This document shows, one piece after another, positions 834 through 31,908 of a DNA stretch of 32,000 nucleotides. Source of the stretch: an archaeon (GTDB lineage: Archaea > Iainarchaeota > Iainarchaeia > Iainarchaeales > CSSED10-239); the NCBI GenBank assembly GCA_041657425.1, contig JBBABY010000002.1, positions 90,001 through 122,000 on the forward strand, read 5' to 3'. Made by a program: the position numbers and the translations under genes. Below the pieces are notes generated by a model. That model made no database searches. It was given only the letters and a program-made list of their open reading frames with translations, and was not told the origin of the DNA. Each line of letters begins with the position of its first letter. The stretch's first letter is position 1.

Positions 834-3332
834 TTAATTCTTTTCTTCTTGAATATTTAATTTATTAAATAATTGATCTTTATTTAGATAATAATCATTA
901 ACTATGTTATTAAAATCATAACTATCTACAATTTCTGAATCAACTAACCAACGTAATAATCGCTTATATTTATTATAATCTACAATATTAAGACTAGAAG
1001 ACACTAAATTAATATGGAATTCGTCATCTTTATTTAAATAAGTAATTACTTTATGCTCACTATTTCTATATATTTCAGTTATACTTGAAAATTGCATTTG
1101 CTCCAAATTATTTGTATTTATTCTTTCTAAATCAATAACTATTAAATTAACACCAACAGTTTTTGCTTTTTCTAAATAATTTTCTAATATTTGTTTATCC
1201 ATATACATTAAATTAATTTCATACCATTTAATCTCAAATAATTCTTCAGTAAAATTATCTAATATTAAATAATCAGGTCTTTGAGAGATTATTTGAGAAA
1301 TAATTGTTTTTCTATTTTGAACAGAATCATCTAACATTAATCTTTTAATCCAATTTCGTTGTGGCAATTTAATATAATCAAAAGATTGGATACTAGTAAT
1401 TTTCTTATCTGGATAAAATTGGGCGAGAGCAGATAATAAAATGGTACTATCTCCTCCAGTAATTACAACTTGATATTCTTGATTCATTATTGCCCAAATA
1501 TAGGCAAATATATCTGTTGTACCTATCCCTAAATTTATTAAATTTACTGGAGTTAATGGGTCTTCCAAATATTTTTTTATAACAAAAGAAGAACCTTTAT
1601 TACTAGTGTCTCCTACAGAATACAACCCTTCAATCCTATATCCATTTGGTAAATTTCCATTTATTATGGGCTTAGATGAATTTACTTGTAATCCCATAGT
1701 TTTTGTTATTGCCAATACAAACAAATTAAGTTTAGATATATTCTCAAATACTAAATTAGTTTGCAATGCTCCGTATTTAAGATGATATACGGTTAATGGA
1801 ATATTTTCCCCAGAACAACTCACTTCTAATACATTTTTATCCTCAAGAACATTTGCTAAAAAACCAAGCCCAGAAAAATCTTGGTTTATAAAATTTAAAT
1901 ATAGCTTTTTTTCTAAATCTGTTAATGTATAAGTTAATTTATTTATGGTTAAATCAAATATCTTTTGAATATAATTATTTATATTCTGTTTATCCCCCTT
2001 AAAGGATAAATAATTTGAATCAATAGAATCTAAAAACACTTTTTTAATTTCAGAATAAGTTTCTTCTTGAGCAGCGGTTAAATTTGGTTGTATTAAATTA
2101 TAAAACAAGCCTTGTTTCTCTTGATAGCTAATATTTACAAAAGTAAATTCGTTTATATTATATTTTTCAGATATCTGGCTCTTATTTATATCTAATGCAT
2201 TAGGTTTAACTGCATAAATAAGATTTTGAGTTGCGGTGGTTGTAAATTGAGGCATTGTGTTTGCTAAATAAGAATCTGAATCTGATTCAATAAACATTGA
2301 TTTTGCAACAGACCTATTTTCTAATTTTGAATCTGCAGGCAATAAATAATCAAACGTAGTTTTGGCTTTAGCCGCAATCTGTTCTTTCAATTCCTGACCC
2401 TGTGGCAAATTAATTTTTAAATTTTTAGAATTGATATTTATGGCGTTTATTTTCTGTTCAACTTCGGGATTTGGTTTAATTTGCTTATTTTGTATTACAA
2501 AACTGGAATCTACATTCTTTTTCTTTTCTGGACGATTTTCATTACTTGAAAAAGCGTTAGAGATTACTTGCGAAATTTTAGAATCGTCCATAAGAGAAAT
2601 CATTTCAGGAATTTCAATTTCTTCTATTAAAGCAGTAATAGATTTTGATTGTGGATTATTTTTTAAATTGTGAGTAATATATTCTGGCTCAATAATTTTA
2701 GAATTATTTACCTTATTTTCAATAGAATCAATCTTTGCATATAGGTTAGAAACATCCATATTTTTTATTGGAATTTTCTCAACCATCGGCTTATCTCCTA
2801 AAAAACTTATAGATTCTAAAAATGGATTTTCATCATCAACCCTTGTAGTTTCTTTGCGTAAGGACTCTAAAAGAGCATCTACATCAGAAGTATTATTTTC
2901 AACAATCCACTCTAGATTCCCGTCCATCATATTACTATGCCCATTACTTAAATTATTCGAAATAACCTCCAATCTCTTTTTCTCTATTTCAAATTTTAAA
3001 TCATTTTCTACCCTTGCGGTTTGATTTAGTATTTCTTGAGATCTCTGTTCTATTTCTAAATTTTCTTTTATTTTTAATTTGGAAATAATCGCATCTTGTT
3101 TTTGTAGTTTTAAAGTAATTATATTCTTTTCTTGTGATTGTGGGATATTTTCTTTTTTAATAGGGATATTAAGTTTAGGAATTATCTTAGTTACCTTGTG
3201 TTGATAATTAGAAGGTGCCTTTAATTTATCACGACTAGCACTAAATTTAGGAAATATTGTTTTTACTATCCCTTCATTTTTGTTTGGATCGTAAATTATC
3301 TTGATCCGCTCTAATTTTTTTATTTCGACCAT
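834..3332 (-). CDS. FlaI/GspE/VirB11-family secretion 'ATPase' homologue with degenerate nucleotide-binding motifs and a low-complexity N-terminal extension of about 430 aa
   Basis: The C-terminal ~400 aa align by eye to archaeal FlaI. EVSCSGENIPLTVYHLKYGALQTNLVF corresponds to the DISCDG..IPIYV.H.KY....TN block, and LPNGYRIEGLYSVGDTSNKGSSFVIKKY corresponds to LPDGSR......VS.RGSSFTIRKF. At the Walker A position the sequence is VVITGGDSTILLSAL, with no GxxGxGKT and no Lys. The Asp-box position reads SIQSFDYIKLPQRNW instead of SIEDT.E. The Walker B position reads RPDYLILDNFTEE instead of RPD.IIVGE(I/V)RG.E. The N-terminal half is N/K/E/I/S-rich. Confidence 0.75.
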   Translation of the reverse strand: MVEIKKLERIKIIYDPNKNEGIVKTIFPKFSASRDKLKAPSNYQHKVTKIIPKLNIPIKKENIPQSQEKNIITLKLQKQDAIISKLKIKENLEIEQRSQEILNQTARVENDLKFEIEKKRLEVISNNLSNGHSNMMDGNLEWIVENNTSDVDALLESLRKETTRVDDENPFLESISFLGDKPMVEKIPIKNMDVSNLYAKIDSIENKVNNSKIIEPEYITHNLKNNPQSKSITALIEEIEIPEMISLMDDSKISQVISNAFSSNENRPEKKKNVDSSFVIQNKQIKPNPEVEQKINAININSKNLKINLPQGQELKEQIAAKAKTTFDYLLPADSKLENRSVAKSMFIESDSDSYLANTMPQFTTTATQNLIYAVKPNALDINKSQISEKYNINEFTFVNISYQEKQGLFYNLIQPNLTAAQEETYSEIKKVFLDSIDSNYLSFKGDKQNINNYIQKIFDLTINKLTYTLTDLEKKLYLNFINQDFSGLGFLANVLEDKNVLEVSCSGENIPLTVYHLKYGALQTNLVFENISKLNLFVLAITKTMGLQVNSSKPIINGNLPNGYRIEGLYSVGDTSNKGSSFVIKKYLEDPLTPVNLINLGIGTTDIFAYIWAIMNQEYQVVITGGDSTILLSALAQFYPDKKITSIQSFDYIKLPQRNWIKRLMLDDSVQNRKTIISQIISQRPDYLILDNFTEELFEIKWYEINLMYMDKQILENYLEKAKTVGVNLIVIDLERINTNNLEQMQFSSITEIYRNSEHKVITYLNKDDEFHINLVSSSLNIVDYNKYKRLLRWLVDSEIVDSYDFNNIVNDYYLNKDQLFNKLNIQEEKN

Positions 3333-5137: not shown

Positions 5138-5755
5138 TTATTTTAATTTTACTCTTGCATCAACTATATAAAAATTATCTTTTGTAAAGATTACTGGGTT
5201 TAAGTCTAATTCTAAAAGATCTTTATCTTTTGAAAGGATAGAAACTTGCTCAACTAAGAAAATCAATTTAGAAACATCATATTGTATTCCTCTTGCAAAA
5301 AATAATTTACTTACTCTTGTTTGAAATATCATTTCTTCTATTTCTTTTTTTGTAATTGGTAATATTCTTATTGCAGTATCATTTTGAATCTCTGTGTAGA
5401 TTCCTCCTTGGCCAAAAACTATAACTTTACCAAACTGAGGATCTTCGTTTATTCCAACAATTAATTCTAAACCTTTTACTTGTTTTTGAAGTATTACTTT
5501 TCCTATAACTTTTTCTTTCTTTAAAACATTTTGTAAATAATCAAATGATGACTCAAGTGATTCCTTTGAATAAATATCAGTAATTATTGCTTTACTTTCC
5601 GTTTTATGTATCAAGTTTGAACTTAACTTTAAAACATACGGAAAATTAGAATATTTTTCTAATTCTTTTTTTGAATTGATTATTTTTGTTTCAAGAACAG
5701 AAATTTTATTTTTTTTAAGATATTCGATTGATTCATTAAAATTTAGCCAATTCAT
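5138..5755 (-). CDS. Stand-alone ATP-grasp domain protein (ADP-forming acetate-CoA ligase beta / AcdB-like, ATP-grasp_5 type)
   Basis: Family-typical blocks are present: FPYVLKLSS..IHKTESKAI, GLELIVGINEDPQFGKVIVFGQGGIYTEIQNDTAIRILPI, and a C-terminal LELDLNPVI. There is no CoA-binding or ligase-CoA domain in the ORF or in its neighbours. Confidence 0.6.
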   Translation of the reverse strand: MNWLNFNESIEYLKKNKISVLETKIINSKKELEKYSNFPYVLKLSSNLIHKTESKAIITDIYSKESLESSFDYLQNVLKKEKVIGKVILQKQVKGLELIVGINEDPQFGKVIVFGQGGIYTEIQNDTAIRILPITKKEIEEMIFQTRVSKLFFARGIQYDVSKLIFLVEQVSILSKDKDLLELDLNPVIFTKDNFYIVDARVKLK

Positions 5756-5977: not shown

Positions 5978-7279
5978 ATGAAATTACAGTGCCTTGGAGC
6001 AGGACAAGAAGTTGGAAGAAGTGCTCTATTACTAAAAGGAACAGACAACATATTATTGGATTATGGTCTTAAACTAAATCCTACAACACAAGTACAAACA
6101 GATATGGAATTACCAGCTAAGACTGAACACCCTAAACCTGTTAAAGATAAACTTGCAGGAATTGTGTTAAGTCACGCTCACTTAGATCACTCCGGAGCAA
6201 TACCATCACTTTACAAAAATGGGAATGCACCATTGTTCTTAACAGAAGCAACTTTAGATTTATCCAATCTTTTATGGAAAGATACACTTAAAATTGCAAA
6301 GATTACGGGAGACGATTGTGGGTTTAAGCAACAGCAAGTTGATGACACAAATAATTCTGCATTCTATATTGACTATAAATTACCTGTACAGATTACACCT
6401 AATACAAAAATAACTTTCTTTGATGCAGGCCACATTGTTGGTAGTGTTATGACTCTTGTTGAAATGGACAAGAAGAAGATACTTTACACTGGAGACTTTA
6501 GAGCAACAGAAAGTCAAATGTTTAAGGGTTATGATAGAAAGTTACCACAAGTTGACATCTTGATAATGGAAACCACTTATGGTGATGCGCCACACACAGA
6601 TAGAAAAGGACAAGAAAAATTATTAATTGATGAAATCAAAGAAACAATAGACAATAGAGGAATTGTTATTCTTCCTGCTTTTGCTATTGAAAGATCTCAA
6701 GAACTTGTAAGTATTCTTGATAGATACAATATTAATTGTCCAATTTACCTAGATGGAATGGCAAAGAAAGCAACAACTATCTTTGCTCAATATCCAAATC
6801 AGTTTGTTGATTTTAATAGATTTAAGAAAGGAGTAGATAGAGTTGAATTTATTAAAAATCAAAAAAGAAGAGAAAAAATTGTTGCAGCTAATACTTCTTG
6901 TATAATTATTACTACTGCGGGAATGCTTGAAGGTGGACCAGTTCTCGGTTTTATTAGAGACTTAGGAGATAATCCAAAAAACAAAATAATCTTAACAGGT
7001 TACCAAGTAGAAGGAACAAACGGTAGAAGATTACTTGATAAAGGAAAACTTTACATTGATGGTAAAATCTACTCACCAAGAGCAAAAGTTACAAAACATA
7101 GTTTTTCTGCTCATGCTGATAGAAATGAACTTCTGGAATTAGTTAAAAAAGTTAATCCTAAAAAAGTGGTTTGTATACACGGAGATAAAGAAACAACTTT
7201 TGATTTCAAGAATGCCCTTAAGAAACTTGGAATTAACGCTGAAAATCCTGCAGTTGGAGATACAGTTGAATTAGACTAA
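5978..7279 (+). CDS. Metallo-beta-lactamase / beta-CASP ribonuclease, KH-less aCPSF2-type
   Basis: It carries the HAHLDHSG (HxHxDH) motif, then FDAGHIVGS, ETTYG, an SAHAD-type motif C and a final CIHGD. At 433 aa it has no N-terminal KH domains. An AGGAG sequence lies 8 nt upstream of the ATG. Confidence 0.85.
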   Translation: MKLQCLGAGQEVGRSALLLKGTDNILLDYGLKLNPTTQVQTDMELPAKTEHPKPVKDKLAGIVLSHAHLDHSGAIPSLYKNGNAPLFLTEATLDLSNLLWKDTLKIAKITGDDCGFKQQQVDDTNNSAFYIDYKLPVQITPNTKITFFDAGHIVGSVMTLVEMDKKKILYTGDFRATESQMFKGYDRKLPQVDILIMETTYGDAPHTDRKGQEKLLIDEIKETIDNRGIVILPAFAIERSQELVSILDRYNINCPIYLDGMAKKATTIFAQYPNQFVDFNRFKKGVDRVEFIKNQKRREKIVAANTSCIIITTAGMLEGGPVLGFIRDLGDNPKNKIILTGYQVEGTNGRRLLDKGKLYIDGKIYSPRAKVTKHSFSAHADRNELLELVKKVNPKKVVCIHGDKETTFDFKNALKKLGINAENPAVGDTVELD

Positions 7280-11865: not shown

Positions 11866-13434
11866 ATGATTCCAGACCCTAGAATTATAGAAAATATACA
11901 AAAATTAAAAGATTTAGGAATGTCTAAAGATGACATTAAAAGTAACCTTATAAAGATGGGACTATCTTCATCTGATTGTGATGAATTAATAATCAATGCT
12001 TTTAATGGAACTGTAGAAAAGAAAGAAGAAATAATTATCCCAAAACCAACTATTGCAAAAGAATCAAATATTGCCAACTCAGTATCAAAAGAAGAAAAAA
12101 TAGATACTACTGAATTACCAGATAATTTATTTGATGATGATACCGATATTGGAACATTAAAAGATGAAAATCAAATTTTAGATATTAAAGACACATCAAA
12201 AGAAATCCCTGATATCACTAAAGGCCTTGGAGTTGATGAACTTAATTATTCTGAATCAGATTATAAATCTACAATTGAAGAATCTAAACCATTTTATAAT
12301 CTCAATAATAAAGCTCAAACTAATTCTAAAAATATAACTACAACTCCTACAAACTCAGATATCTGGGGTTCTGGTTTAGCAACTACTATCAACTCAAAAC
12401 TAAATGAAATTGATTTAAAACAAGCAAAGATGGAAGAATTCTTAAAACTCAGAATTGCTGAAGAAATTGAAAAATATAAGAGAATACAAGAAACTTCTAA
12501 GCAACTACTTACAACAAAAATAAATGAAGATGTTACCACTCAAACACACGAAATTAATACCCAATTAACTAGACAACTTGCTCAACTTAAAGTTGAACAA
12601 ATTAAAATTAATAAAAAAACCGAAGAAATCACTAATGGAAAAAAAGAAATTGAAGAACTAACTAAACATATGCAGTCATTTCAAACGCAATTAGTAGATC
12701 AAAATACAGTTTCACAAGAAAATGTAAATAAAATTATTGCAACAACTACTGTAAAGCTAAATGCCAAAATAAAAGAAATAAATGATATACTTGCACTTCA
12801 ATCAAGAATTACTCAAGGATTAATAAAAAATACTCAAACTGCAATTGGTGGAGAGATTACTAAGTTAAATGAATTTAAAGAAAATATTGATAAAAAAATT
12901 AATCCTCAACAATTGTATGATAAATTAAATCAATTAGAGCTATTTAAGCAACAACTTGCAAACAGATATGAAACAAGATTTGAAAATGTAAAAACAGAAT
13001 TTTTAGTTAAAGCAAGAGAGGCATTTAAAGATGAAATTAATAAAGATCTAAAAGATATAAAAACAGTTAGAGATACAATTGTTGCAAAAAGCGATCCTGA
13101 ATTAATTAATAAAAAGATAGAAGAATTAAATACTTTCCAAACACACCTTCTTTCTGCAATTGATGAAAAGATTTCTCAATCTCTTAAAGTCTATGAATCT
13201 GTAATCACTCAAGAAATAAAAGGAAAATCAAATGCAATTGATGAAGAAATTAAAAAAATAGAGAATGCAATGATTACTTTAGATTTAGCAAAAGAAAAAG
13301 TAACTGAACTTAATATGTTTAAAGATCAGTTTATTGCAATTATTGATAAAAATATAGAAAAAATAAATACAACCTTTTCTTTACTAGAAAATAAAATAAA
13401 AGAAATGGAAGAAAATCAAAAGAAACTAATGTAA
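11866..13434 (+). CDS. Long coiled-coil protein with a small N-terminal helical domain, function unknown
   Basis: The gene starts 5 nt after the adk stop. The N-terminal ~45 aa (IENIQKLKDLGMSKDDIKSNLIKMGLSSSDCDELI) are followed by an acidic/Thr-rich linker and then about 350 aa of heptad-like K/E/Q/I/L-rich sequence. I see no enzymatic motif. Confidence 0.55.
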   Translation: MIPDPRIIENIQKLKDLGMSKDDIKSNLIKMGLSSSDCDELIINAFNGTVEKKEEIIIPKPTIAKESNIANSVSKEEKIDTTELPDNLFDDDTDIGTLKDENQILDIKDTSKEIPDITKGLGVDELNYSESDYKSTIEESKPFYNLNNKAQTNSKNITTTPTNSDIWGSGLATTINSKLNEIDLKQAKMEEFLKLRIAEEIEKYKRIQETSKQLLTTKINEDVTTQTHEINTQLTRQLAQLKVEQIKINKKTEEITNGKKEIEELTKHMQSFQTQLVDQNTVSQENVNKIIATTTVKLNAKIKEINDILALQSRITQGLIKNTQTAIGGEITKLNEFKENIDKKINPQQLYDKLNQLELFKQQLANRYETRFENVKTEFLVKAREAFKDEINKDLKDIKTVRDTIVAKSDPELINKKIEELNTFQTHLLSAIDEKISQSLKVYESVITQEIKGKSNAIDEEIKKIENAMITLDLAKEKVTELNMFKDQFIAIIDKNIEKINTTFSLLENKIKEMEENQKKLM

Positions 13435-15342: not shown

Positions 15343-16185
15343 TTACTTTCTATAAACATATCTTATATATCTTGTTGAAAAAGATAATACTAAAATTATT
15401 AAAATAAATATTAAAATTATTTGAAATACTGTTGAATCTAAAGTAGTTAACACATCTATATTACCTAATGAGAATAGTCCTGTAAATACTGAAAATGGTT
15501 CATTTGGTTTTATTACATCTTTTTTTGGCAAGTCAATTGTAATATTACTATATATTCCATTACATCTGTAATCTAATTTTGTTTGATTAATGTCTGTTTT
15601 AAATAATCTAACTAATGAACTTTCTGTTGCTTTTATTGTTGAAATTTTACCAATTGGAACTTCTAAGTTAATGTCTCTTAAATCAAGAACATCTATGTTT
15701 TGATTTATATTACTATTATTTTTAAATATTAATTCTAGTTTGTAATTATCTGATTCTTTTACATAACTTATGAAATACTGTAAATCTACTTGGCACACTC
15801 TATTTGTTTTTTGAAGAATTGTAAAAGTAATTTTATTATAGTAGTCTATAGAAGTTACTTCTATGCTTGAACTGTAAGTTGATTCTAGTTGATTTTCTAA
15901 AGGAGTTATTGTTAATGGAACTAGTTTTGAAGTATTTGGTTGTAATCTTATTGTTGTTTCTGAGAAATAAGATGGATAAGGTGCAGTATATGACTTTAAT
16001 GTATAAGTTTGGACTGTACTTGTGGGGTTATAGATATAAAAATCCACAGAAATTTGTTTATCGACAAGAGTTACATTACTTGGAAAAGATGTTGTTGCAT
16101 TCCCAGCATAAACTACTTGTAAAGATATTAATGCAATTATTAATAGTAAAAATATTTTTTTAAACATAGAATTCACTCTCTGCAA
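15343..16185 (-). CDS. Secreted protein with a C-terminal transmembrane anchor, function unknown
   Basis: It has a Sec-type signal (MFKKIFLLLIIALISLQVVYA-GN), so the true start may be Met7 at 16167. The body is beta-rich and S/T/N-rich. The C-terminus has a TM helix plus a basic tail (FQIILIFILIILVLSFSTRYIRYVYRK). The gene lies 15 nt upstream of the 628-aa surface-protein gene. Confidence 0.55.
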   Translation of the reverse strand: MQRVNSMFKKIFLLLIIALISLQVVYAGNATTSFPSNVTLVDKQISVDFYIYNPTSTVQTYTLKSYTAPYPSYFSETTIRLQPNTSKLVPLTITPLENQLESTYSSSIEVTSIDYYNKITFTILQKTNRVCQVDLQYFISYVKESDNYKLELIFKNNSNINQNIDVLDLRDINLEVPIGKISTIKATESSLVRLFKTDINQTKLDYRCNGIYSNITIDLPKKDVIKPNEPFSVFTGLFSLGNIDVLTTLDSTVFQIILIFILIILVLSFSTRYIRYVYRK

Positions 16186-22893: not shown

Positions 22894-23556
22894 TTATTTT
22901 ATGAAACTTTTCTGTGCTTTTAAGGCCTTAGTAATTATTCTTCTTGCTAAGAAATTATTTAGAAAATTATTAAATAAAATATTATATCCCACAATATTAC
23001 CTTGATGTTTAGATAACTCTAGTTTCCAAGCATTTGTTAAATCAACTAGATCTTTCTTATCAATTGTAATATAATGTGTGTCTTTAGAATCTACGCGCAC
23101 ACTTGTAGATTTCTCCCCAATAAAATTATCAATATTTGTTCCTTTTAATCTAAGATTATCTGAAATTGTTATTGGTTGTTTGTCGCCTATATTTGAATTA
23201 AATGAAACTGCAATTACTGGTTTATTTTTTTCATCATAACTAATTCTAGGCATGTGGTTTTTATCAAGAGTATATTCAAAATTACTATATCTAAATGCAT
23301 AGCCCATAGCAACTATTATTGAATTTCCAATCCTAGAGATATATTTTCTAGTTGATTCTCTATTAAGAAAATTAGAATCTATTACTACAGAATTATGAAA
23401 AGGATTATAAAGTTCTTTTCTATGATCTGATTGTTTTTGATTAACTTCATGAAGTTCATTAGATCCTCTAACTGCAATACTCCCATAGTCCTTTAATTTT
23501 TTTCTAACTAATGGCAAAGTGGTTTTAGATCTTGTCGCTCTTCTTAATGCTACCAT
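22894..23556 (-). CDS. Hypothetical protein with a basic N-terminus
   Basis: This is a clean 220-codon ORF between serS and the FKBP gene. I recognise no motif or transmembrane segment. Confidence 0.45.
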   Translation of the reverse strand: MVALRRATRSKTTLPLVRKKLKDYGSIAVRGSNELHEVNQKQSDHRKELYNPFHNSVVIDSNFLNRESTRKYISRIGNSIIVAMGYAFRYSNFEYTLDKNHMPRISYDEKNKPVIAVSFNSNIGDKQPITISDNLRLKGTNIDNFIGEKSTSVRVDSKDTHYITIDKKDLVDLTNAWKLELSKHQGNIVGYNILFNNFLNNFLARRIITKALKAQKSFIK

Positions 23557-23623: not shown

Positions 23624-24217
23624 CTATTTCTTCTCTTCTTCGTCTTCATCATCGTCGCAATCTTCACAATCGCACTCATCGTCTTCGCATTCGTGGTCGT
23701 CTTCTCCGCATTCACCGTGACAGCTTGAACAACTTCCTCCACAACTGTGTGCTTCAAGTTCTTCGTCCATCTTTGCTGCTTCTGCCTCTGAAAGTACTTC
23801 AATTAACTTAACTTTAAATGTAAGATTCTTTCCTGCAAGTGGGTGATTTAATATTGCATCAATTGTTGTTTCATCAATCTTAACGATTTCAATAGCTAAT
23901 GGACCCATTCCTGACATTACAACAATTTCTTTGCCTTCTTGTAAGTCACTTATGCTGTTTAATAGTTCCTTTGGAATCTTTGCAACTTCTGTGTTCTTAG
24001 GACCGTATCCTTCTTCAGGAGTTACCTTAATATCTTTTTCTTCTCCTGATTTCATTCCGATTACTCCGTCTTCAAACCCTGGAATAACCATACCAATACC
24101 AACTTTAAACTTTAATGGATCTCTACCTTTACTAGAATCAAACATTGTTCCATCATCTAATAAACCATCATATTCAACTACTATCCAATCATTCTCTTTA
24201 ACACTCATACGTATCAT
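23624..24217 (-). CDS. slyD: SlyD-like FKBP-type peptidyl-prolyl isomerase with a Cys/His/Asp/Glu-rich C-terminal tail
   Basis: The FKBP core contains VEYDGLLDDGTMFDSS, PLKFKVGIGMVIPGFEDGVIGMK and an IF-domain-like insert, then HPLAGKNLTFKVKLIEV. The 41-aa tail is HSCGGSCSSCHGECGEDDHECEDDECDCEDCDDDEDEEEKK. An AAGGAG sequence lies 4-5 nt upstream of the ATG at 24217. Confidence 0.85.
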   Translation of the reverse strand: MIRMSVKENDWIVVEYDGLLDDGTMFDSSKGRDPLKFKVGIGMVIPGFEDGVIGMKSGEEKDIKVTPEEGYGPKNTEVAKIPKELLNSISDLQEGKEIVVMSGMGPLAIEIVKIDETTIDAILNHPLAGKNLTFKVKLIEVLSEAEAAKMDEELEAHSCGGSCSSCHGECGEDDHECEDDECDCEDCDDDEDEEEKK

Positions 24218-24612: not shown

Positions 24613-24660
24613 TTACTCTAATTGAGTTCTACCATAGAATCCTTTTGGGAAGTAGATCAG
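24613..24660 (-). pseudogene. Orphan duplicate of the last 15 codons plus the stop of the livM-type permease gene
   Basis: The minus strand reads CTG ATC TAC TTC CCA AAA GGA TTC TAT GGT AGA ACT CAA TTA GAG TAA, which translates to LIYFPKGFYGRTQLE*. This is identical in protein sequence to the C-terminus of the intact gene ending at 25965. There is no upstream ORF, and the RelA/SpoT-domain gene's stop codon overlaps the fragment's first codons. Confidence 0.8.
24626..24657. repeat. Left copy of the exact 32-bp direct repeat gttctaccatagaatccttttgggaagtagat
   Basis: I compared it base by base with 25978-26009 and the two are identical. Confidence 0.95.
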
Positions 24661-25724
24661 TATTTATTTAAAATTATTTCTAAATGTTTTAAAAATTCTT
24701 TAGTATCTAAAAAATAATTGGGATATGCTTTTTTAAGATCTTGCATATTGTCAGCACTAACTAATACAACGTCATATTCGTTTCTATTATATATTTTCTT
24801 TTCTGCAGAAGAATATGCTAGGAGTGCTTCTTTTTCTTCTCTTTTAGTGAATGCAGAAATATTTAGTCTTTCAAGAACTGTATCTAATTCTAAAAGATAA
24901 AATTGTATGTTTTTCTTTTTTTTAAAATTATCAAAGTATTTTACAGATTCAGTCCAGTGCTTCATTTTCTGTTTTACTTGTAACTTTTTTTCTAGTTCTT
25001 TAATTTGTAAATAAAGTTCTTTTTCATTCTGAGGTGTTTGAGAAATTATCGGAGTATTTTCTAGTCTTGCAAATGCGGAACTTACTAATTTAAAAAAAGC
25101 TTTCCAGTTTTCCTCTCCTTGATTAGATTTTATGGCTTGTCTTGTAAAAAAATCAACAGTTTCTACTGCTGTTGCCCAAAGGTGTTGTAATTTAGATCTT
25201 ATTTGCACTTCTACTAATAGACCATTATATTCTTTTTTTCCTTTATCGCTACTATATCTATATACTAAATGTATACTTCTATATCCATCTAATTTAGGGC
25301 TTGAAATATAATCTTTTACATTTACTTTTTTATGCTTTATATCCCCGTTATAATAATAGGTTTCATATAATTCTCTCACTTGTTTAATGTCCGACATCAC
25401 AACTCTACAACCAGCAATATCTTGCATTTGAGTTAATTTCATTGTAGGACAATTATCATTATATTTTCTATTTAGTTTTTTAAATATCGAAGAAATTCTT
25501 TTTAATCTTTGAGCAGAGAGTGCATTTTTGTCTATTTTTTCAGAAACTCTTTTTAATCTATTTTTAAATACTTGTAAGGGATAGTTATGCATTGTCTTCC
25601 AGCTATTCACAATTTCTAATGCTTCATCTATTTCTGCTGCAGAATGCTCTTTATTATCAGATAGAATTATAGCTGAATTATTTATTTTTGATTTTGAGAT
25701 TTCGTTAATATCTAGTTGCTCCAT
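24657..25724 (-). CDS. RelA/SpoT (RSH) synthetase-domain protein, small-alarmone-synthetase / toxSAS-like, with an uncharacterised ~150-aa C-terminal domain
   Basis: The catalytic-domain blocks appear in order: SAQRLKRISSIFKKLNRK (RxKxxxSxxxK), MQDIAGCRVV (DxxGxRV), LDGYRSIHLVY (GYRSxH) and LVEVQIRSKLQHLWATAVE (ExQIR(T/S)..QH.WA). There is no HD hydrolase, TGS or ACT domain. The C-terminal region (QFYLLELD...YDVVLVSADNMQDLKKAYPNYF) matches nothing I can identify. Confidence 0.85.
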   Translation of the reverse strand: MEQLDINEISKSKINNSAIILSDNKEHSAAEIDEALEIVNSWKTMHNYPLQVFKNRLKRVSEKIDKNALSAQRLKRISSIFKKLNRKYNDNCPTMKLTQMQDIAGCRVVMSDIKQVRELYETYYYNGDIKHKKVNVKDYISSPKLDGYRSIHLVYRYSSDKGKKEYNGLLVEVQIRSKLQHLWATAVETVDFFTRQAIKSNQGEENWKAFFKLVSSAFARLENTPIISQTPQNEKELYLQIKELEKKLQVKQKMKHWTESVKYFDNFKKKKNIQFYLLELDTVLERLNISAFTKREEKEALLAYSSAEKKIYNRNEYDVVLVSADNMQDLKKAYPNYFLDTKEFLKHLEIILNKY

Positions 25725-25746
25725 AATAATATATTATTGCATAACC

Positions 25747-25759
25747 TTTTTAAATATAT
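25747..25759 (-). promoter_or_regulatory. TATA box (minus strand ATATATTTAAAAA) for the RelA/SpoT-domain gene; leaderless geometry
   Basis: Exactly 22 nt separate the box from the ATG at 25724. The same spacing is seen at both TrmB genes. The first AAATTGCGCG motif abuts the box on its upstream (BRE) side. Confidence 0.45.
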
Positions 25760-25800
25760 CAAATTGCGCGGTTATCGTGTAAAAAAAGTGTCAAATTGCA
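25759..25800. repeat. Composite repeat unit 1: tcaaattgcgcg - 10 nt - A7 - gtg - tcaaattgca
   Basis: The motifs sit at 25759-25770 and 25791-25800, 32 bp apart start to start. The GCGCG core is conspicuous against the AT-rich background. Confidence 0.7.
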
Positions 25801-25899
25801 AGGAGAATTAAAAAAATCTAATTTTCCTACTAACCTTTATATTTAAAGCATTACCAAACACAAGTACAAAAATCATTTTTAATTATTAAAAAATTTATG

Positions 25900-25943
25900 T
25901 CAAATTGCGCGTGCACTCCAAAAAAAAAATGCTGAATTGCGCA
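25900..25943. repeat. Composite repeat unit 2: tcaaattgcgcg - 8 nt - A10 - tg - ctgaattgcgca
   Basis: The motifs sit at 25900-25911 and 25932-25943, again 32 bp apart. The layout matches unit 1, including the internal A-run. Confidence 0.7.
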
Positions 25944-25964
25944 GACCCTAATTATCAACATTTA

Positions 25965-26837
25965 CTATTCCAACTGCGTTCTACCATAGAATCCTTTTGG
26001 GAAGTAGATTAAGATTATCAAAAGCAAAAGAGCAAAAAGAATCTGTCTTCCTGGACCAACAATTGATGAAGGAAGACCAACAAATCTTAAAATTTCTGGA
26101 ATAAGTGTAAGAATGATTGTAGCTACTACTGTTCCTTCAATGGAAGCAAGTCCTCCAACAATAATTATTGAGATAACTGGGATAAGTGCCATGAAAGTAA
26201 AAGAAGAAGGGTCAATGAAAGTTATGAAGTGAACAAACAACGAACCTGCGATACCAGCAAAGACTGCAGAGATGATAAGCCCAATTGTTTTAATCTTAAA
26301 TGTATTTTTTCCAAGAGCCTTAACACAGTATTCATCATCTCTTGTTGCTTCAAGTAGTTTACCAAACTTAGAGTTTACTATTCTTTGAATAATAAAGTAA
26401 CAAGCAACAGTAACTATTACTGTAAATATTAGATAAGAAAGATTACTACGAAAAACTAAACCAAAGATGTCTGGTTTTGGTATTCCTGAAATCCCAAATG
26501 GCCCTCTTGTTAAGTCTATCCAGTTGATAAGAAGAGCATAGACAAGAAACGAAAACGCCATTGTCCCTAAGGCAAGATAATCTCCTTTAAGTTTATTTGT
26601 TGGTACTGAAAGGATTAGTGCTGCAACTCCTGCTATTATTCCTGCTAAGAGAAACGCAAGAAGGAAAGGGACACCATTCATCACAAGTATTGCTGAAGTG
26701 TAAGCTCCGATTCCAAAGAAAGCAATGTGACCAAAGTTAAGTAGTCCTGTGTAACCAATAGAAACTTGTAAAGCTAAACAAAGTATTAACTGTATTGCAA
26801 TAATAATTAACAAATGTATAAAATAATCAATAATCAT
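25965..26837 (-). CDS. livM: Branched-chain amino acid-type ABC transporter permease (LivM family)
   Basis: This is a polytopic permease with family-typical blocks: GYTGLLNFGHIAFFGIGAY, EATRDDEYCVKALGKN and GGLASIEGTVV. Its start overlaps the livH stop (ATGA at 26834-26837). Confidence 0.85.
   Translation of the reverse strand: MIIDYFIHLLIIIAIQLILCLALQVSIGYTGLLNFGHIAFFGIGAYTSAILVMNGVPFLLAFLLAGIIAGVAALILSVPTNKLKGDYLALGTMAFSFLVYALLINWIDLTRGPFGISGIPKPDIFGLVFRSNLSYLIFTVIVTVACYFIIQRIVNSKFGKLLEATRDDEYCVKALGKNTFKIKTIGLIISAVFAGIAGSLFVHFITFIDPSSFTFMALIPVISIIIVGGLASIEGTVVATIILTLIPEILRFVGLPSSIVGPGRQILFALLLLIILIYFPKGFYGRTQLE
25978..26009. repeat. Right copy of the exact 32-bp direct repeat (inside the functional 3' end of livM)
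   Basis: It is identical to 24626-24657. Confidence 0.95.
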
Positions 26838-27823: not shown

Positions 27824-28969
27824 TTAGTTGTTTATGTATTTTATATTTCCATTTTCTATAGTTGCTTGAACTAATGGGAAACTAAACTCTCTTCCATTAA
27901 TACTTGCGTCTCCATTGATTCCATTAAACTCTGTAATCTCTGAAAGCCCATCTTTTATTTCTGCTTTTGTATAGTTTGATTTTCCTATTGATTTTTTTAT
28001 AAGATAAACTATATCATATCCTGTTGTAGCATAATGGTCTGCATCTTTATTGTATTTTGCTTTAAATTGTGTTTTAAAGTCTTCAGCTTTTGAGTCATCA
28101 TTTCTATATAATTCAGGAATTCCTGCATATGCTTTAACATTCATTTCATTTAATGCAGATCTAACATCCTTAAATGCTGCTGTTGATGGAATGAAAACTG
28201 CTACATTCATATCAAGTTCTTTACTTTGTTTTATTGAATTAATTATGTGACTACTAAAACCAACAAATAATATTGCATCTACATCTTGATATTTTAATTT
28301 ATTTAATTGAGTTCTAAAATCACTTGTAGATATTAAAAATGATTCGCCTACAACTTCTCCATTGTATTGTTCCTTTAATGTATTAAACATTGAAACTCCA
28401 AAATCATCATTTAAATATAAAACTCCTATTTTTTTTACACCTAAATCATTTGCGGCTTCTACAATTGGAGGAACTTCTTGTTTTGCTGTTGGAAAATATC
28501 TAAATGACCATTCATTTGTTGTTAAGTTTGGAACTGAAGCAATTGTTGCTATTACTGGTACTTGGTTTTGTTCTGCTAAAGGAACTACTGCCATTGCAAC
28601 AGAACTCATTGCTGAAACAATAACTACTGGATCTTGAAGATTTGTCATATTATTGAAAGCTGCAACTCCTTCTTGAACATTTGATTTACTATCGCCTAGT
28701 ACTAAGACAACTTGTCTTCCGTTTATTCCACCTTTGGCATTAATTTCATCAACTGCCATAATCATGCCGTCTCTTATTTGTTCACCTGCAAAAGCTGTTG
28801 AACCTGTAAGTGGTAAAACTGCACCCATCTTTATAATTTGTTCTTCTGGGGTCTTTAATACTAACAATCCTGTTATATTTGAATTAGATCCTATTATTGC
28901 AACTAATAAAATTATAACTATTATTGCAATTGAAACTATTAACCAAATTTTATTTTTCATCGTTTTCAT
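27824..28969 (-). CDS. LivK-like (Peripla_BP_6) ABC substrate-binding protein, membrane-anchored
   Basis: It has an N-terminal TM anchor, followed by GAVLPLTGSTAFAGEQIRDGMIMAVDEINAKGGINGRQVVLVLGDSKSN, which is typical of Leu/Ile/Val-binding-protein family members. An AAGGAG lies 5 nt upstream of the ATG. Confidence 0.85.
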   Translation of the reverse strand: MKTMKNKIWLIVSIAIIVIILLVAIIGSNSNITGLLVLKTPEEQIIKMGAVLPLTGSTAFAGEQIRDGMIMAVDEINAKGGINGRQVVLVLGDSKSNVQEGVAAFNNMTNLQDPVVIVSAMSSVAMAVVPLAEQNQVPVIATIASVPNLTTNEWSFRYFPTAKQEVPPIVEAANDLGVKKIGVLYLNDDFGVSMFNTLKEQYNGEVVGESFLISTSDFRTQLNKLKYQDVDAILFVGFSSHIINSIKQSKELDMNVAVFIPSTAAFKDVRSALNEMNVKAYAGIPELYRNDDSKAEDFKTQFKAKYNKDADHYATTGYDIVYLIKKSIGKSNYTKAEIKDGLSEITEFNGINGDASINGREFSFPLVQATIENGNIKYINN

Positions 28970-29036
28970 AAAAATCTCCTTTTTATTTTTTAACTGTGTA
29001 TAATTAACTTATGACTTTTCGGGTTATTATATTTGT

Positions 29037-29054
29037 GTAGTAAAAATTTACTAC
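29037..29054. promoter_or_regulatory. Palindromic operator candidate GTAGTAAA-aa-TTTACTAC in the divergent binding-protein/TrmB intergenic region
   Basis: The inverted arms are a perfect 8 nt. The palindrome lies immediately upstream of the TrmB gene's TATA box and is conserved in the paralogous intergenic region (31068-31086). Confidence 0.55.
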
Positions 29055-29055
29055 A

Positions 29056-29064
29056 TTTTTAAAG
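29056..29064 (+). promoter_or_regulatory. TATA box (TTTTTAAAG) of TrmB paralogue 1, leaderless geometry
   Basis: It lies 22 nt upstream of the ATG at 29086. An identical sequence occurs with identical spacing at the second TrmB gene. Confidence 0.5.
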
Positions 29065-29085
29065 CTTTCTATATACTATATATTT

Positions 29086-29862
29086 ATGGAAAACATAGAA
29101 ACTAAGGGGATAACCACTTCAAACATAACTGCTAGTTACTTTGAAGATATTGGCTTTAAAAAAAAGTACGCTAATGTTTACTTAGCTCTTCTTAAGTTTG
29201 GGCATATGGGCATACCTGACATTGTTAAAAAAACTGGAGTTCAAAGAAGTTATCTTTACGACATTCTTGATGAATTGATTGAAAAAGGAATTGTTGGAAG
29301 TTATGTAAAAAATAACACTAAAATATTTTTTGCTGATGATCCAGAAAAAGTTCTAAAGATAATTAATAAGAAAGAAGAAAATATTAAGAATTTTAAAAAA
29401 GAATACACTGACATTCTTCCAACGTTAATTTCAATTAGTAGTAAAAATGAAAAAGATGAATTATTTTCATATGAAGGAAAAAAAGGAATTAAAAATATCT
29501 ATGATGACATTTTAAAAGAAGGGAAAGACTTTGTTTGTTTTGCAGGAACTGGATTTCCTGACGATTTTTACAAAGACTTTGTAAAAACATTTAATATTAG
29601 ATGTAAGAAAAAAGGAATTAAATACAAACTAATATTTTCGGACGCACTTAAATCTCGCGGTCCATTAGAAGTACACAAAGATGTTTGTGAAATTAAATAT
29701 TTACCAAAAGAATATAATTATTCTTTTGCTATGCATGTTTATGGAGACAAAGTTTCAATCATTATTTGGCAATCACAAATGGGTATTGTAATAAAAAGTA
29801 AAAATGCTGCAAACGGATTTGCGGATTACTTTGAAATGATATGGAAGATTGCTAAAGAATAA
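29086..29862 (+). CDS. TrmB-family transcriptional regulator (paralogue 1)
   Basis: The N-terminal winged helix is TrmB-type: FEDIGFKKKYANVYLALLKFGHMGIPDIVKKTGVQRSYLYDILDELIEKGIV. A coiled linker and a C-terminal effector-like domain follow. Confidence 0.8.
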   Translation: MENIETKGITTSNITASYFEDIGFKKKYANVYLALLKFGHMGIPDIVKKTGVQRSYLYDILDELIEKGIVGSYVKNNTKIFFADDPEKVLKIINKKEENIKNFKKEYTDILPTLISISSKNEKDELFSYEGKKGIKNIYDDILKEGKDFVCFAGTGFPDDFYKDFVKTFNIRCKKKGIKYKLIFSDALKSRGPLEVHKDVCEIKYLPKEYNYSFAMHVYGDKVSIIIWQSQMGIVIKSKNAANGFADYFEMIWKIAKE

Positions 29863-29868
29863 AAAAGA

Positions 29869-29894
29869 AAAGATATCTTCTCTAAGATATCTTT
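29869..29894. terminator. 9-bp-stem hairpin at the convergent gene ends (possible bidirectional terminator)
   Basis: The sequence is aaagatatc-ttctctaa-gatatcttt. The right arm overlaps the last codons of the minus-strand binding-protein gene. A/T runs flank it. Confidence 0.35.
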
Positions 29895-30997
29895 AATGAT
29901 ACTGCTTCTCCATTTTCAATAATGAAGTAATCTACTTGTGGATTTATTGCTCTTCCAATTGAAGAGTTATAATTTATTACTGTACCTGTTGCTTGATCAT
30001 TTAACATTGCATCAGTAATACATACTTTATCTGCCTTTCCACATTTCTTTACTGCAGAATATAATTTAAATATTCCATCATAATCTGTTGGAGCATTTCC
30101 AGTTATTCCTGTTGTGTTACCATATTCTACATTGTAATCGCTTGTAAATGTGTCAGAATATTTTAATACACTAATAACTGTTCCATTTAAATTTTCTGTA
30201 CCAATTGTAGTTTTAATTTTGTCTGTAAATGTGTTTGATGCATCTCCAAATAACACTAAGTTATTTAACTCAAGATCTAACTTTGCAGTATATACTCCAA
30301 TTGTTGTACCTTCATAAGCACATGAAAATAATCCATAATATCCTTCATTGCTTAACTTAAGTAATACTGTTTTTAGGTCTTGTACCCCTACTAAACTTTC
30401 AACTTTTATATTTTCTTGTGTGTAATAATTTAATGCACCTTTTTGACAATCAATTGGCATAGCCCCACCAACACCATCAAGTATTGCAATCTTTTCAATT
30501 CCTTGTGATTTTGCAATTTTTGCAAATGTTGTACATTCTGCTTCTGCATTTCTATATGTTTTTACTGAGTAATCATATTTTGTTAATGGATCTGTTGTGT
30601 ACGCACTATACAATACAAACATATTGTTATCTTTAGCAATTGGAACAACTGCACCTGATGGGCCAGTAAATTCTACAAATATTACATCAACATTATCTAT
30701 TTGTACTAACTTGTTTGCTGCAACTGCAGCTTCTTTTGCATCTGATTTTGAATCTTCAACTATTACTTGTATTGAATCATCACCATACATTTCTTTTATT
30801 TTCTTTTCTGCTAACAATACTGCTCTTGAATCTGGCACTCCAAGATAACTTGTTGTTCCAGTTATTCCTGTAATAAAACCTATCTTTACTGTTTGTGGTT
30901 CTGATTTTTTAGTTGCTTGAATTGCAACAACAACTATTAAGGCAATAACTGCAATTGCTACAATAATTAAAATCCAATTTTTATTTTCTGTTTTCAT
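29882..30997 (-). CDS. LivK-like (Peripla_BP_6) ABC substrate-binding protein, paralogue 2, membrane-anchored
   Basis: It has a TM anchor, followed by KIGFITGITGTTSYLGVPDSRAVLLAEKKI...VEDSKSDAKEAAVAANKLV. I set the start at Met8 (30997) because a GGAGG lies 9 nt upstream. The ORF-track start is 31018. Confidence 0.8.
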   Translation of the reverse strand: MKTENKNWILIIVAIAVIALIVVVAIQATKKSEPQTVKIGFITGITGTTSYLGVPDSRAVLLAEKKIKEMYGDDSIQVIVEDSKSDAKEAAVAANKLVQIDNVDVIFVEFTGPSGAVVPIAKDNNMFVLYSAYTTDPLTKYDYSVKTYRNAEAECTTFAKIAKSQGIEKIAILDGVGGAMPIDCQKGALNYYTQENIKVESLVGVQDLKTVLLKLSNEGYYGLFSCAYEGTTIGVYTAKLDLELNNLVLFGDASNTFTDKIKTTIGTENLNGTVISVLKYSDTFTSDYNVEYGNTTGITGNAPTDYDGIFKLYSAVKKCGKADKVCITDAMLNDQATGTVINYNSSIGRAINPQVDYFIIENGEAVSLKIS

Positions 30998-31067
30998 AGT
31001 TTCTTTCCTCCAAATCATTTTATCAAGTTATTAAATAACTTATAATCGTTCTTGCTTATAAGTGAGT

Positions 31068-31086
31068 GTAGTAAATAACTTACTAC
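31068..31086. promoter_or_regulatory. Palindromic operator candidate GTAGTAA-ataac-TTACTAC (paralogous to 29037-29054)
   Basis: The inverted arms are a perfect 7 nt. The flanks match the first copy (gtGTAGTAAA ... CTAC-TTTTTAAAG-n-TTTCT-n-TAT). Confidence 0.55.
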
Positions 31087-31095
31087 TTTTTAAAG
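31087..31095 (+). promoter_or_regulatory. TATA box (TTTTTAAAG) of TrmB paralogue 2
   Basis: It lies 22 nt upstream of the ATG at 31117, the same spacing as in paralogue 1. Confidence 0.5.
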
Positions 31096-31116
31096 ATTTC
31101 TGTATTTATGCTATTT

Positions 31117-31908
31117 ATGAAGGAAAAAACCTCAGAAGTAATGGCGATGCCTGACCTTAATCCAGCAGACTTATTTAGTTACTTTGAAGAAATAGGGTTT
31201 AAGAGAAACCATGCAAACACTTATCTTGCTTTGTTGAAATTTGGACAACTTGGAATGCGCGACATTGTTAAAAAAACAGGAATACAAAGAAGTTATGTTT
31301 ATGATATCTTAGATGAACTAACAGAAAAAGGACTTGTTGGATTTTTTACAAAAAACAAAAATAGAGTTTACTTTGCTGATGATCCAGAAAAGATTTTAGA
31401 ATTAATAAATAATAAAGAAGAAAAAATAAAAAACTTCAAACAAAAATACACAGCATTACTTCCTAGTTTAATTTCAGTAACCAATGTTGAAGGAAAAGAT
31501 GGACTGTATGCTTATGAAGGAAGAAACGGTTTAAAGAATATATTTGAAGACATGATTAAAGAAGGAAAAGATTTTGTTTGTTTTGGAGGAGAAGGAGAAT
31601 TCTCTAAATACTATCCAGAATATGCAAACACTTTTACTTTAAGATGTAAACAAAAAGGAATGGCACAAAAAATTGTTTATTCAAGTTCACTTAGAGGAAA
31701 GAGACCACTTCCAATACAGAAAATAATTAAATGTGAAATTAAGTTTTTACCTAAAGAATATTATTATCCATTTGCAATTTATGTTTATGGAGATAAAACC
31801 GCAATCATTATGTGGCAATCAATGCAAGGAATATTGATCAAAGGAGAAAGCACAGCAAAGGGATTTGAAGACTATTTTGAAATGATATGGAAAATTGCTA
31901 AAGAATAA
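31117..31908 (+). CDS. TrmB-family transcriptional regulator (paralogue 2)
   Basis: It is alignable with paralogue 1 over its full length, for example FEEIGFKRNHANTYLALLKFGQLGMRDIVKKTGIQRSYVYDILDELTEKGLV and an identical C-terminus YFEMIWKIAKE. I chose the start at 31117 from the conserved TATA-to-ATG spacing. The ORF-track start is 31108. Confidence 0.8.
   Translation: MKEKTSEVMAMPDLNPADLFSYFEEIGFKRNHANTYLALLKFGQLGMRDIVKKTGIQRSYVYDILDELTEKGLVGFFTKNKNRVYFADDPEKILELINNKEEKIKNFKQKYTALLPSLISVTNVEGKDGLYAYEGRNGLKNIFEDMIKEGKDFVCFGGEGEFSKYYPEYANTFTLRCKQKGMAQKIVYSSSLRGKRPLPIQKIIKCEIKFLPKEYYYPFAIYVYGDKTAIIMWQSMQGILIKGESTAKGFEDYFEMIWKIAKE

Follow-up and report, generated by a model that had tools for sequence, protein, structure and literature searches.

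Based on the analysis reported here, we suggest that a 32,000-nt stretch of archaeal DNA (contig JBBABY010000002.1, positions 90,001 to 122,000; referred to in its entirety as the window) encodes a candidate CapRel-type defence protein on a small, laterally acquired cassette. The open reading frame (ORF) in question, at 24657-25724 on the minus strand, starts with ATG, encodes a protein of 355 amino acids (aa) and has the coordinates flagged in a preliminary description of the sequence. Judged by sequence comparison, its product is very likely a single-polypeptide toxin-antitoxin of the CapRel subfamily of toxic small alarmone synthetases (toxSAS). The protein adds a new member to a family that is already known, has been characterised by experiment and is recognised by existing profile models. 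What is new here is the host range (DPANN archaea, Methanoperedens and bacteria of the candidate phyla radiation, CPR), the occurrence as a lone cassette with long target duplications, and a clade-specific array of repeats upstream of the gene.

In Pfam, RelA_SpoT (PF04607), the profile proposed for a search in the preliminary description, matches aa 72-185 of the protein (E 1.9e-20; 73.7 bits vs a cut-off of 27), and no hydrolase, TGS, ACT or other significant domain and no DNA-binding domain is found in the 355 aa. The synthetase motifs quoted in that description (RLKRISSIFKK, DIAGCRV, GYRSIHL and EVQIRSKLQHLWA) are all present, and its statement that the hydrolase, TGS and ACT domains are lacking holds. 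In a phmmer search of PDB sequences, the best matches are two CapRelSJ46 entries, 7ZTB and 9ERV (E 6e-47), with aa 10-348 of the query aligned to residues 16-366 of the 7ZTB chain and 15-365 in 9ERV, while the next matches, RelQ and RelP (~1e-9 to 1e-12), cover aa 70-192 only. A profile built from 56 homologues matches CapRel in the PDB at 7e-60 over positions 7-351, and the pairwise identity between the window protein and CapRelSJ46 is 36% over 330 aligned residues. The sequence of 7ZTB shows 100% identity with the phage SJ46 protein annotated as “RelA/SpoT family protein”. PDC-S33, a candidate model in PADLOC, matches the window protein (2.9e-116; aa 7-352) as well as CapRelSJ46 (9.7e-85) and, therefore, represents the fused CapRel family; a literature search for PDC-S33 returned no paper naming it. 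An AlphaFold2 model of the 355-aa protein (pLDDT 85, pTM 0.83) is matched by Foldseek to 7ztb (E 1e-22, TM 0.66, 365 columns), the relevant entries being labelled “Salmonella tRNA pyrophosphokinase CapRel” (7ZTB) and “CapRel bound to Bas11 Gp54” (9ERV), and to RelQ over the synthetase core only. Compared with the open crystal form of CapRelSJ46, the model has a root-mean-square deviation of 10 Å, a value that would agree with another arrangement of the domains without establishing one. A housekeeping small alarmone synthetase (SAS) of the RelQ/YjbM or RelP/YwaC type was considered and rejected: the NCBIfam models for RelQ/YjbM, RelA and SpoT match weakly and far under their cut-offs, with 58.1 bits vs a cut-off of 320 for the YjbM equivalog NF053588, and the synthetase core is flanked by an extra 65 aa on the N-terminal and 160 aa on the C-terminal side.

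The residues on which CapRelSJ46 depends can be traced in the window protein. In CapRelSJ46, R79 and R116 coordinate the adenine of ATP, Y155 is the catalytic G-loop tyrosine, and Y352 and Y355 of the YxxY motif together with A77, V338, L339, A341 and A351 keep the pseudo-zinc-finger domain (pseudo-ZFD) over the ATP site; mutation at any of these autoinhibitory positions gives constitutive toxicity (Zhang et al., PMC9712102). In the pairwise alignment, the three catalytic residues correspond to R73, R107 and Y148, and the loss of catalytic residues that the preliminary description had envisaged is thus not seen. The autoinhibitory positions Y352, Y355, A77, V338, L339 and A351 correspond to Y334, Y337, A71, V320, L321 and A333, respectively; the sole change, which is conservative, is S323 in place of A341. 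Across the 56 homologues, R73, R107, Y148, V320, L321 and the block Y334-P-N-Y337-F are invariant, and the YxxY motif is also found in prophage CapRels of 30-43% identity.

The preliminary description had noted a C-terminal extension of ~150 aa with no assignable feature. The extension exists, while the second part of that statement has to be revised, as this region corresponds to the CapRel pseudo-ZFD antitoxin/sensor with its anchors. In the AlphaFold2 model, the synthetase core is followed by linker helices, strands at 273-281 and 286-293, a helix at 294-311 and a strand at 317-323, and the C-terminal end consists of a helix at 327-333, the YPNY turn and a helix at 339-353. This predicted topology agrees with the published CapRelSJ46 pseudo-ZFD and anchors (PMC9712102). 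Because the domain has no cysteines, it is, like that of CapRelSJ46, a “pseudo” zinc finger. Also as described earlier, no separate antitoxin-sized ORF adjoins the gene: a small upstream antitoxin was rejected because the 240-nt upstream spacer holds only chance ORFs of at most 36 aa, and no neighbouring gene family recurs among homologous loci. Thus, full-length homology to CapRelSJ46, retention of the catalytic and YxxY residues and the shared match to PDC-S33 support the earlier proposal of a fused toxin/sensor.

By analogy with CapRelSJ46, we propose the following mode of action. In the resting state, the C-terminal pseudo-ZFD would fold back and plug the ATP site. Binding of a viral protein to the pseudo-ZFD/anchor region would release this plug, and the released enzyme would move pyrophosphate from ATP onto the 3'-CCA ends of tRNAs, with a halt of translation and aborted infection as the expected outcome. 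We prefer tRNA modification as the toxic activity because neutralisation at the donor site by YxxY is linked to tRNA-pyrophosphorylating toxSAS and neutralisation at the acceptor site to (pp)pApp producers (PMC11782079, Dominguez-Molina et al.). By this analogy, the window protein probably blocks translation through tRNA modification. A nucleotide-directed toxSAS or a signalling SAS would instead make (pp)pApp or (p)ppGpp, leading to ATP depletion or a stress signal without modification of tRNA. The core is indeed also similar to RelQ/RelP (E 5e-12 to 5e-14, TMt 0.72-0.78), and some toxSAS (FaRel, Tas1 and Pag1B) act on nucleotides. However, this alternative is very improbable given that CapRelSJ46, a tRNA pyrophosphokinase, outranks every other relative by over 30 orders of magnitude, that the RelQ equivalog scores 58 vs 320 bits, and that the YxxY lock is of the donor-site type.

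The second line of evidence concerns how the gene arrived at its present position. The cassette is bounded by direct repeats, as had been described: a 51-nt sequence occurs twice with a spacing of 1352 nt, and both copies encode ILIYFPKGFYGRTQLE followed by a stop codon, i.e. the last 16 codons and stop of a livM-like permease (25965-26837; Pfam BPD_transp_2, 2.5e-43). Copy B is the functional 3' end of this permease gene, while copy A overlaps the CapRel-like ORF by 8 nt (24657-24664) and provides its TGA stop; because an in-frame stop precedes it, copy A is untranslated. The ORF ends with AAA TAC TGA in the window vs AAA TAT TAA in relatives and, therefore, the right boundary of the cassette falls inside the final codons of this ORF. 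Copies A and B have an identical core of 32 nt; outside it, each of the seven flanking codons is different, which amounts to 8 nucleotide differences, 8 of them synonymous, including TAG vs TAA. A random substitution in the repeat is synonymous with a probability of 0.196, giving ~2e-6 for eight in a row; an estimate from the same numbers, in which copy B drifts at synonymous sites only and copy A freely, gives ~3e-4. On account of the all-synonymous differences, simple target duplication followed by drift was rejected for the window repeat. Most likely, the arms derive from functional livM alleles that had diverged from each other and were connected by crossing over within the identical core, as in a Campbell-type integration. 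In this model, a 1.35-kb single-gene cassette with its own ~240-nt regulatory region was inserted into the livM-like permease gene at its 3' end, the likeliest route being single-crossover recombination of a circular intermediate bearing a diverged, functional livM end, which would leave behind the 51-nt direct repeat. No recombinase is present in the 1352-bp insert and no integrase in the neighbouring window genes scanned, and the insert has neither a transposase nor terminal inverted repeats, with only weak AT-rich pairs at its ends.

Homologues of the window gene support lateral acquisition, as proposed in the preliminary description. Homologues of 79-86% identity occupy three unrelated contexts: after livM (L005), between an ABC transporter/RhuM/AbiEii cluster and a dehydrogenase (L002-L004), and between a class-I tRNA synthetase and NIF3 (L006-L008). 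Across loci in different contexts, DNA similarity extends from ~250 nt upstream of the ATG to the stop codon. Among 80 livM relatives, found by scanning metagenome contigs with the livM protein, the gene lies downstream in none; the best of them are 75-77% identical, and the downstream genes of the window are found in none. In a search for FKBP homologues, the three contexts that were read keep the PLDc_N/FKBP/SerRS/NYN/SMC synteny with different upstream genes. Together, the three contexts, the insertion scar and the absence of the gene downstream of the 80 livM relatives argue for lateral acquisition. A vertically inherited housekeeping gene, with the flanking repeat arising by chance or by an unrelated local duplication, is already largely refuted, and we give this reading almost no credence. 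It is favoured by L005 (livM 75%, RelA/SpoT homologue 80% identical), in which the gene also follows livM, so that the association is older than the strain represented by the window, and by the GC content of the gene region (~0.28), which equals that of its surroundings (~0.21-0.33 across the window). By contrast, equally close homologues lie in two other contexts, the gene is lacking not only in the 80 livM relatives but also in four FKBP-synteny relatives, the 51-nt repeat with its perfect 32-nt core scores 32 vs at most 12 in shuffles, and this repeat duplicates a coding 3' end with synonymous differences only.

Comparable scars are present elsewhere in the family. In ~60 loci, we compared the 160 nt past the stop codon with the region from -700 to -150, for which shuffled controls score at most 15. 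Clear direct repeats of 28 to ~145 nt bracket the homologous cassette in five further independent loci, one of them (L010) a weaker case. Because the sequence and the length of these repeats vary among loci, they are local target duplications and not a common att site. At the Aenigmatarchaeota locus L015, the repeat has three synonymous and six non-synonymous codon differences; the non-synonymous differences identify a decaying copy, and simple target duplication followed by drift fits this locus. The inserts between repeats measure 1.33-1.66 kb, comprise the regulatory region and the ORF plus another 0-36 nt, and contain neither a recombinase nor terminal inverted repeats. We know of no prokaryotic element type with this combination of long variable duplications, no recombinase and no inverted repeats. 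A site-specific integrative element was rejected because there is no integrase or recombinase and no constant att core across loci, and a transposon or insertion sequence because there is no transposase, there are no terminal inverted repeats and the duplications, at 28-145 nt, are not of a fixed short length. Once flanked by repeats, the cassette could spread among relatives as a small circle via homologous recombination.

The region that travels with the gene contains an array of YGCGCAA(W)TTGAY-like motifs; between the array and the ATG, ~23-34 nt before the latter, lies a TATA-like box (TATATTTAAAAA). Exact YGCGCAAWT occurs three times in the window, in each case in the 240-nt spacer, with 0.29 occurrences expected. 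In 68 non-redundant loci, YGCGCA occurs 180 times within 260 nt upstream of the gene (10.2/kb), vs a background of 0.20/kb in 586 kb of flanks, a 52-fold upstream enrichment. The array consists of 2-4 repeats, with at least two copies in 61 of the 68 loci; the positions cluster at -45, -77/-97, -129 and -186 and also at -218, with partners 31-33 nt apart, and the fullest position class (-50 to -41) holds 49 of the 180 occurrences. The extended consensus is wAC(C/T)GCGCAAww-GA. Over the nine positions past the core, copies within a locus differ on average at 3.6 positions vs 4.5 between positional counterparts across loci, and 0 of 2000 permutations, which do not control for the relatedness of the loci, reach the observed within-locus similarity. 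A variable half of the motif that is homogenised within a locus and different between loci would fit recognition by the cassette's own product, and autoregulation is the simplest hypothesis because this product alone always accompanies the sites. The array could be an operator. It is also found ahead of the gene in bacteria, namely in the complete Gracilibacteria chromosome L061 and in other bacterial metagenome-assembled genomes (MAGs). On this ground, the basal archaeal promoter element (BRE) was rejected as the sole explanation of the motif, and a purely archaeal basal-promoter role is unlikely. The motif is not a general CapRel feature either, being absent upstream of CapRelSJ46 and in 68 of 72 viral-contig (prophage) loci. 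A search of the upstream region for structured RNAs in Rfam gave nothing at E ≤ 1 or at gathering thresholds.

The clade, with identities of 55-90%, is common in DPANN archaea and is also present in some Methanoperedens/Methanosarcinales, in CPR bacteria and in two Gammaproteobacteria MAGs. A protein search yielded 5379 clusters. Among these, the top 120 consist entirely of full-length proteins with 61-100% identity, and those named among them belong to DPANN archaea (Nanoarchaeota, Aenigmarchaeota and Nanohaloarchaea) and CPR bacteria (Kuenenbacteria, Dojkabacteria and Patescibacteria). A pattern scan of species-representative genomes identified 313 sites with relatives. The best 80 of these 313 are mostly from the DPANN lineages Woese-, Nano-, Iain-, Aenigmat-, Micr- and Pacearchaeota, and also include several Methanoperedens/Methanosarcinales, a few CPR members, among them the complete Gracilibacteria chromosome L061, and two Gammaproteobacteria MAGs. 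The generalisation that RelA/SpoT homologues are rare in archaea consequently fails for this clade. The archaeal context given in the preliminary description agrees with the NCBI label of an identical protein (“MAG: archaeon”), the TrmB regulators in the window and the closest species genomes, which are DPANN. In IMG/VR, a single match (55% identity) belongs to the clade, and the other 79 are CapRels of 30-43% identity on viral or prophage contigs of other lineages. This sole carrier (L174; IMGVR_UViG_GVMAG-S-1041346-124_000001) is labelled a giant-virus MAG and has two upstream motif copies; either the mis-binning of a DPANN contig or true carriage by a virus could account for it. In the literature that could be searched, CapRel is described as bacterial and phage-borne with archaea unmentioned, and a defence-system survey lists CapRel and DPANN apart and never links them.

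Several points weigh against our reading of the protein as a virus-triggered defence protein on an inserted cassette. Toxicity, product, autoinhibition and antiviral effect are all assigned by analogy to a bacterial homologue of 36% identity. Within the clade, mean column entropy is higher in the pseudo-ZFD (0.90) than in the catalytic core (0.63), but the most variable part is not the pseudo-ZFD but the N-terminal ~45 aa (25590-25724), with entropies of 1.3-1.9 vs 0.3-0.9 in the core, a pattern that departs from the Red-Queen pattern reported for enterobacterial CapRelSJ46. The window protein lacks the segments in which L280 and L307, the residues of SJ46 that contact the capsid and determine its recognition, are located and, therefore, trigger specificity must differ. 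We know of no virus of these archaea as a possible source of a trigger. In addition, the searches with livM relatives and FKBP synteny returned no exact empty site and no empty livM-PLDc_N junction, and no circle junction was seen, which makes the integration route a reconstruction. Finally, the 148 ORFs that flank ~70 homologues include no family with more than three occurrences and no recurrent partner gene; these neighbours are mostly housekeeping genes and not defence islands. The association with defence islands is weak, with only a handful of the 148 ORFs matching PADLOC models; some neighbours are defence candidates (PDC-S13, PDC-S01, a restriction enzyme and CARF).

Some of these observations would suit a selfish addiction module, in which the fused toxin-antitoxin serves retention and spread of the cassette or stabilisation of the genome, without dedicated antiviral sensing. 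The mobile cassette comprises the gene and its control region and nothing else and lies among housekeeping genes, variability peaks outside the pseudo-ZFD, and the clade is almost absent from viral contigs. However, classical addiction exploits the differing stabilities of two proteins, a mechanism that is not available to a fused toxin-antitoxin. Moreover, every fused CapRel characterised so far is a defence protein triggered by phage (PMC9712102), a close homologue is located beside AbiEii and RhuM, and some neighbours are the defence candidates listed above. We consider an addiction module unlikely, and retain virus-triggered defence as the preferred function.

More broadly, we entertain the possibility, which at present we regard as rather unlikely, that the DPANN/CPR CapRel clade represents an undescribed self-contained mobile defence cassette, consisting of the gene and an operator-like array, that inserts duplicatively with 28-145-nt duplications and without a recombinase and spreads as a circle. 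If so, pyrophosphorylation of tRNA-CCA ends would serve ultra-small archaea and bacteria, the viruses of which are almost unknown, as a defence against viruses. To our knowledge, CapRel is among the few immune proteins with demonstrated direct sensing of a viral structural protein, and the CapRel work to this effect is all from enterobacteria and their phages. An intact, strongly conserved clade in DPANN archaea, Methanoperedens and CPR bacteria extends CapRel across domains and into tiny genomes with few recognised defences, and the CapRel sensor domain could be used as bait for proteins of unknown viruses. The cassette also exemplifies how a defence gene can be gained singly amid housekeeping genes, with neither an island nor an evident mobile-element backbone around it, and genome mining based on defence islands would miss such single-gene cassettes. 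The conserved upstream array provides a directly testable candidate regulatory or mobility signal.

In the window, the gene is flanked on one side by two BPD_transp_2 (livH/livM-like) permeases, solute-binding proteins and TrmB regulators, and on the other by a 69-aa PLDc_N membrane protein, an FKBP isomerase, seryl-tRNA synthetase, a methyltransferase, NUDIX, NYN and SMC. Positions 27824-31908 and the DNA beyond (L001:1-7901) contain at least four tandem divergent pairs of a TrmB-family/HTH regulator and a Peripla_BP_6 solute-binding protein; these pairs sit upstream of the livH/livM permease genes, and no transporter ATPase genes were seen nearby. The FKBP-type isomerase (23624-24217, minus strand) ends in a long C-terminal tail with many Cys, His, Asp and Glu residues (…HSCGGSCSSCHGECGEDDHECEDDECDCEDCDDDEDEEEKK), which resembles the metal-binding tails of SlyD-like chaperones. 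Four sizeable ORFs have no Pfam match at E ≤ 0.001, at 834-3332 (minus strand, 832 aa), 11866-13434 (plus strand, 522 aa), 15343-16185 (minus strand, 280 aa) and 22894-23556 (minus strand, 220 aa). Elsewhere, at L002:1-5630 and also in L003 and L004, a 79% homologue adjoins genes for an AbiEii-domain protein, a RhuM-family protein and an ABC-type ATPase, which is the only defence-like neighbourhood among the contexts read in detail. The coordinates of the cassette, its parts and the comparable repeats are collected in Table 1.

Table 1. Features of the CapRel-type cassette in the window and direct repeats bracketing homologous cassettes at other loci (coordinates of the latter refer to the respective locus)
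Feature	Position	Strand	Remarks
CapRel-type fused toxSAS gene	24657..25724	-	Predicted toxSYNTH pyrophosphokinase with C-terminal pseudo-ZFD antitoxin/sensor; PADLOC, PDB and Foldseek matches
toxSYNTH core (RelA_SpoT, aa 72-185)	25170..25511	-	Pfam; ATP-coordinating R73 and R107, G-loop Y148
Pseudo-zinc-finger-like domain (aa 262-323)	24756..24941	-	beta-beta-alpha-beta, no cysteines; presumed trigger sensor and antitoxin
YxxY neutralisation motif (Y334-P-N-Y337)	24714..24725	-	In invariant block KKAYPNYFLDT; identical to CapRelSJ46 Y352-P-N-Y355
Upstream region, 240 nt	25725..25964	-	Travels with the gene; four YGCGCAA(W)TTGAY-like copies, then TATA-like box
Motif copy 1 (TGCGCAATT)	25935..25943	-	~-218 from ATG
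Motif copy 2 (CGCGCAATT TGACA)	25903..25911	-	~-186 from ATG
Motif copy 3, degenerate (CCTTGCAATTTGACA)	25789..25803	-	~-77; canonical copy at this position in other loci
Motif copy 4 (CGCGCAATT TGATA)	25762..25770	-	~-45; abuts TATA-like box
Direct-repeat copy A	24614..24664	-	Duplicate livM 3' end right after the CapRel-like ORF
Direct-repeat copy B	25966..26016	-	Functional 3' end of livM-like permease gene 25965-26837
Inserted unit, 1352 bp	24665..26016	-	One repeat copy, regulatory region and ORF; repeat spacing 1352 nt
L015, Aenigmatarchaeota	5435-5559 / 7094-7218		~145 nt, score 101; 3' end of upstream gene duplicated
L034, Gammaproteobacteria MAG	5648-5734 / 7081-7167		87 nt, score 81; last 20 nt of upstream ORF and intergenic DNA
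L011, uncultured archaeon	5643-5706 / 7089-7152		64 nt, score 58; first 21 codons of downstream ORF
L077, Methanosarcinales	5727-5754 / 7061-7088		28 nt, score 25
L010, archaeon	5272-5302 / 6684-6714		31 nt, score 22; weaker case; hairpin-like element, also tandemly repeated

Among known systems, cis-mobilisable or satellite integrative elements (att-flanked DNA without an integrase of its own) and the Campbell-type integration of small circles share several features with the cassette: flanking direct repeats by which the target gene regains its 3' end, an identical core with diverged arms, and no recombinase inside. The cassette differs in that its repeats vary in sequence and length (28-145 nt) among loci, so that there is no fixed att site, in that no integrase is nearby in the window, and in that the insert is one gene. 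RelQ (YjbM) and RelP (YwaC) share the synthetase core (aa 70-190; E ~1e-12 to 1e-14; Foldseek TMt 0.72-0.78), but with ~200-250 aa they consist of the core only and have neither the N-terminal extension nor the C-terminal pseudo-ZFD and YxxY. RelQ and RelP make (p)ppGpp and are not toxins. In bipartite toxSAS, toxSYNTH is neutralised at the pyrophosphate-donor site by a pZFD-like YxxY antitoxin (PMC11782079; PMC7229694). PhRel/ATphRel of mycobacteriophage Phrann, CapRel/ATcapRel of Mycobacterium and FaRel2/ATfaRel2 resemble the window protein in this YxxY donor-site neutralisation of toxSYNTH, which in the window protein is predicted. In these pairs, toxin and antitoxin are separate genes, whereas the window protein is fused and has no neighbouring antitoxin gene; the PDB sequence searches returned no FaRel2 or PhRel2 structure at E ≤ 1. 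The closest known system is CapRelSJ46 of Salmonella phage SJ46 and E. coli prophages. The two proteins are of the same size class (373 vs 355 aa), are laid out alike from N-terminal helices through toxSYNTH, linker helices, pseudo-ZFD and YxxY to the C-terminal helix, have an identical KKAYPNYF block, and are encoded by a single ORF without a partner. By contrast, the host here is a DPANN archaeon and not an enterobacterial prophage, the pseudo-ZFD is shorter and without the segments carrying L280 and L307, the clade has its own upstream YGCGCAA array, and the gene resides not inside a prophage but on a 1.35-kb recombinase-less cassette with target duplications.

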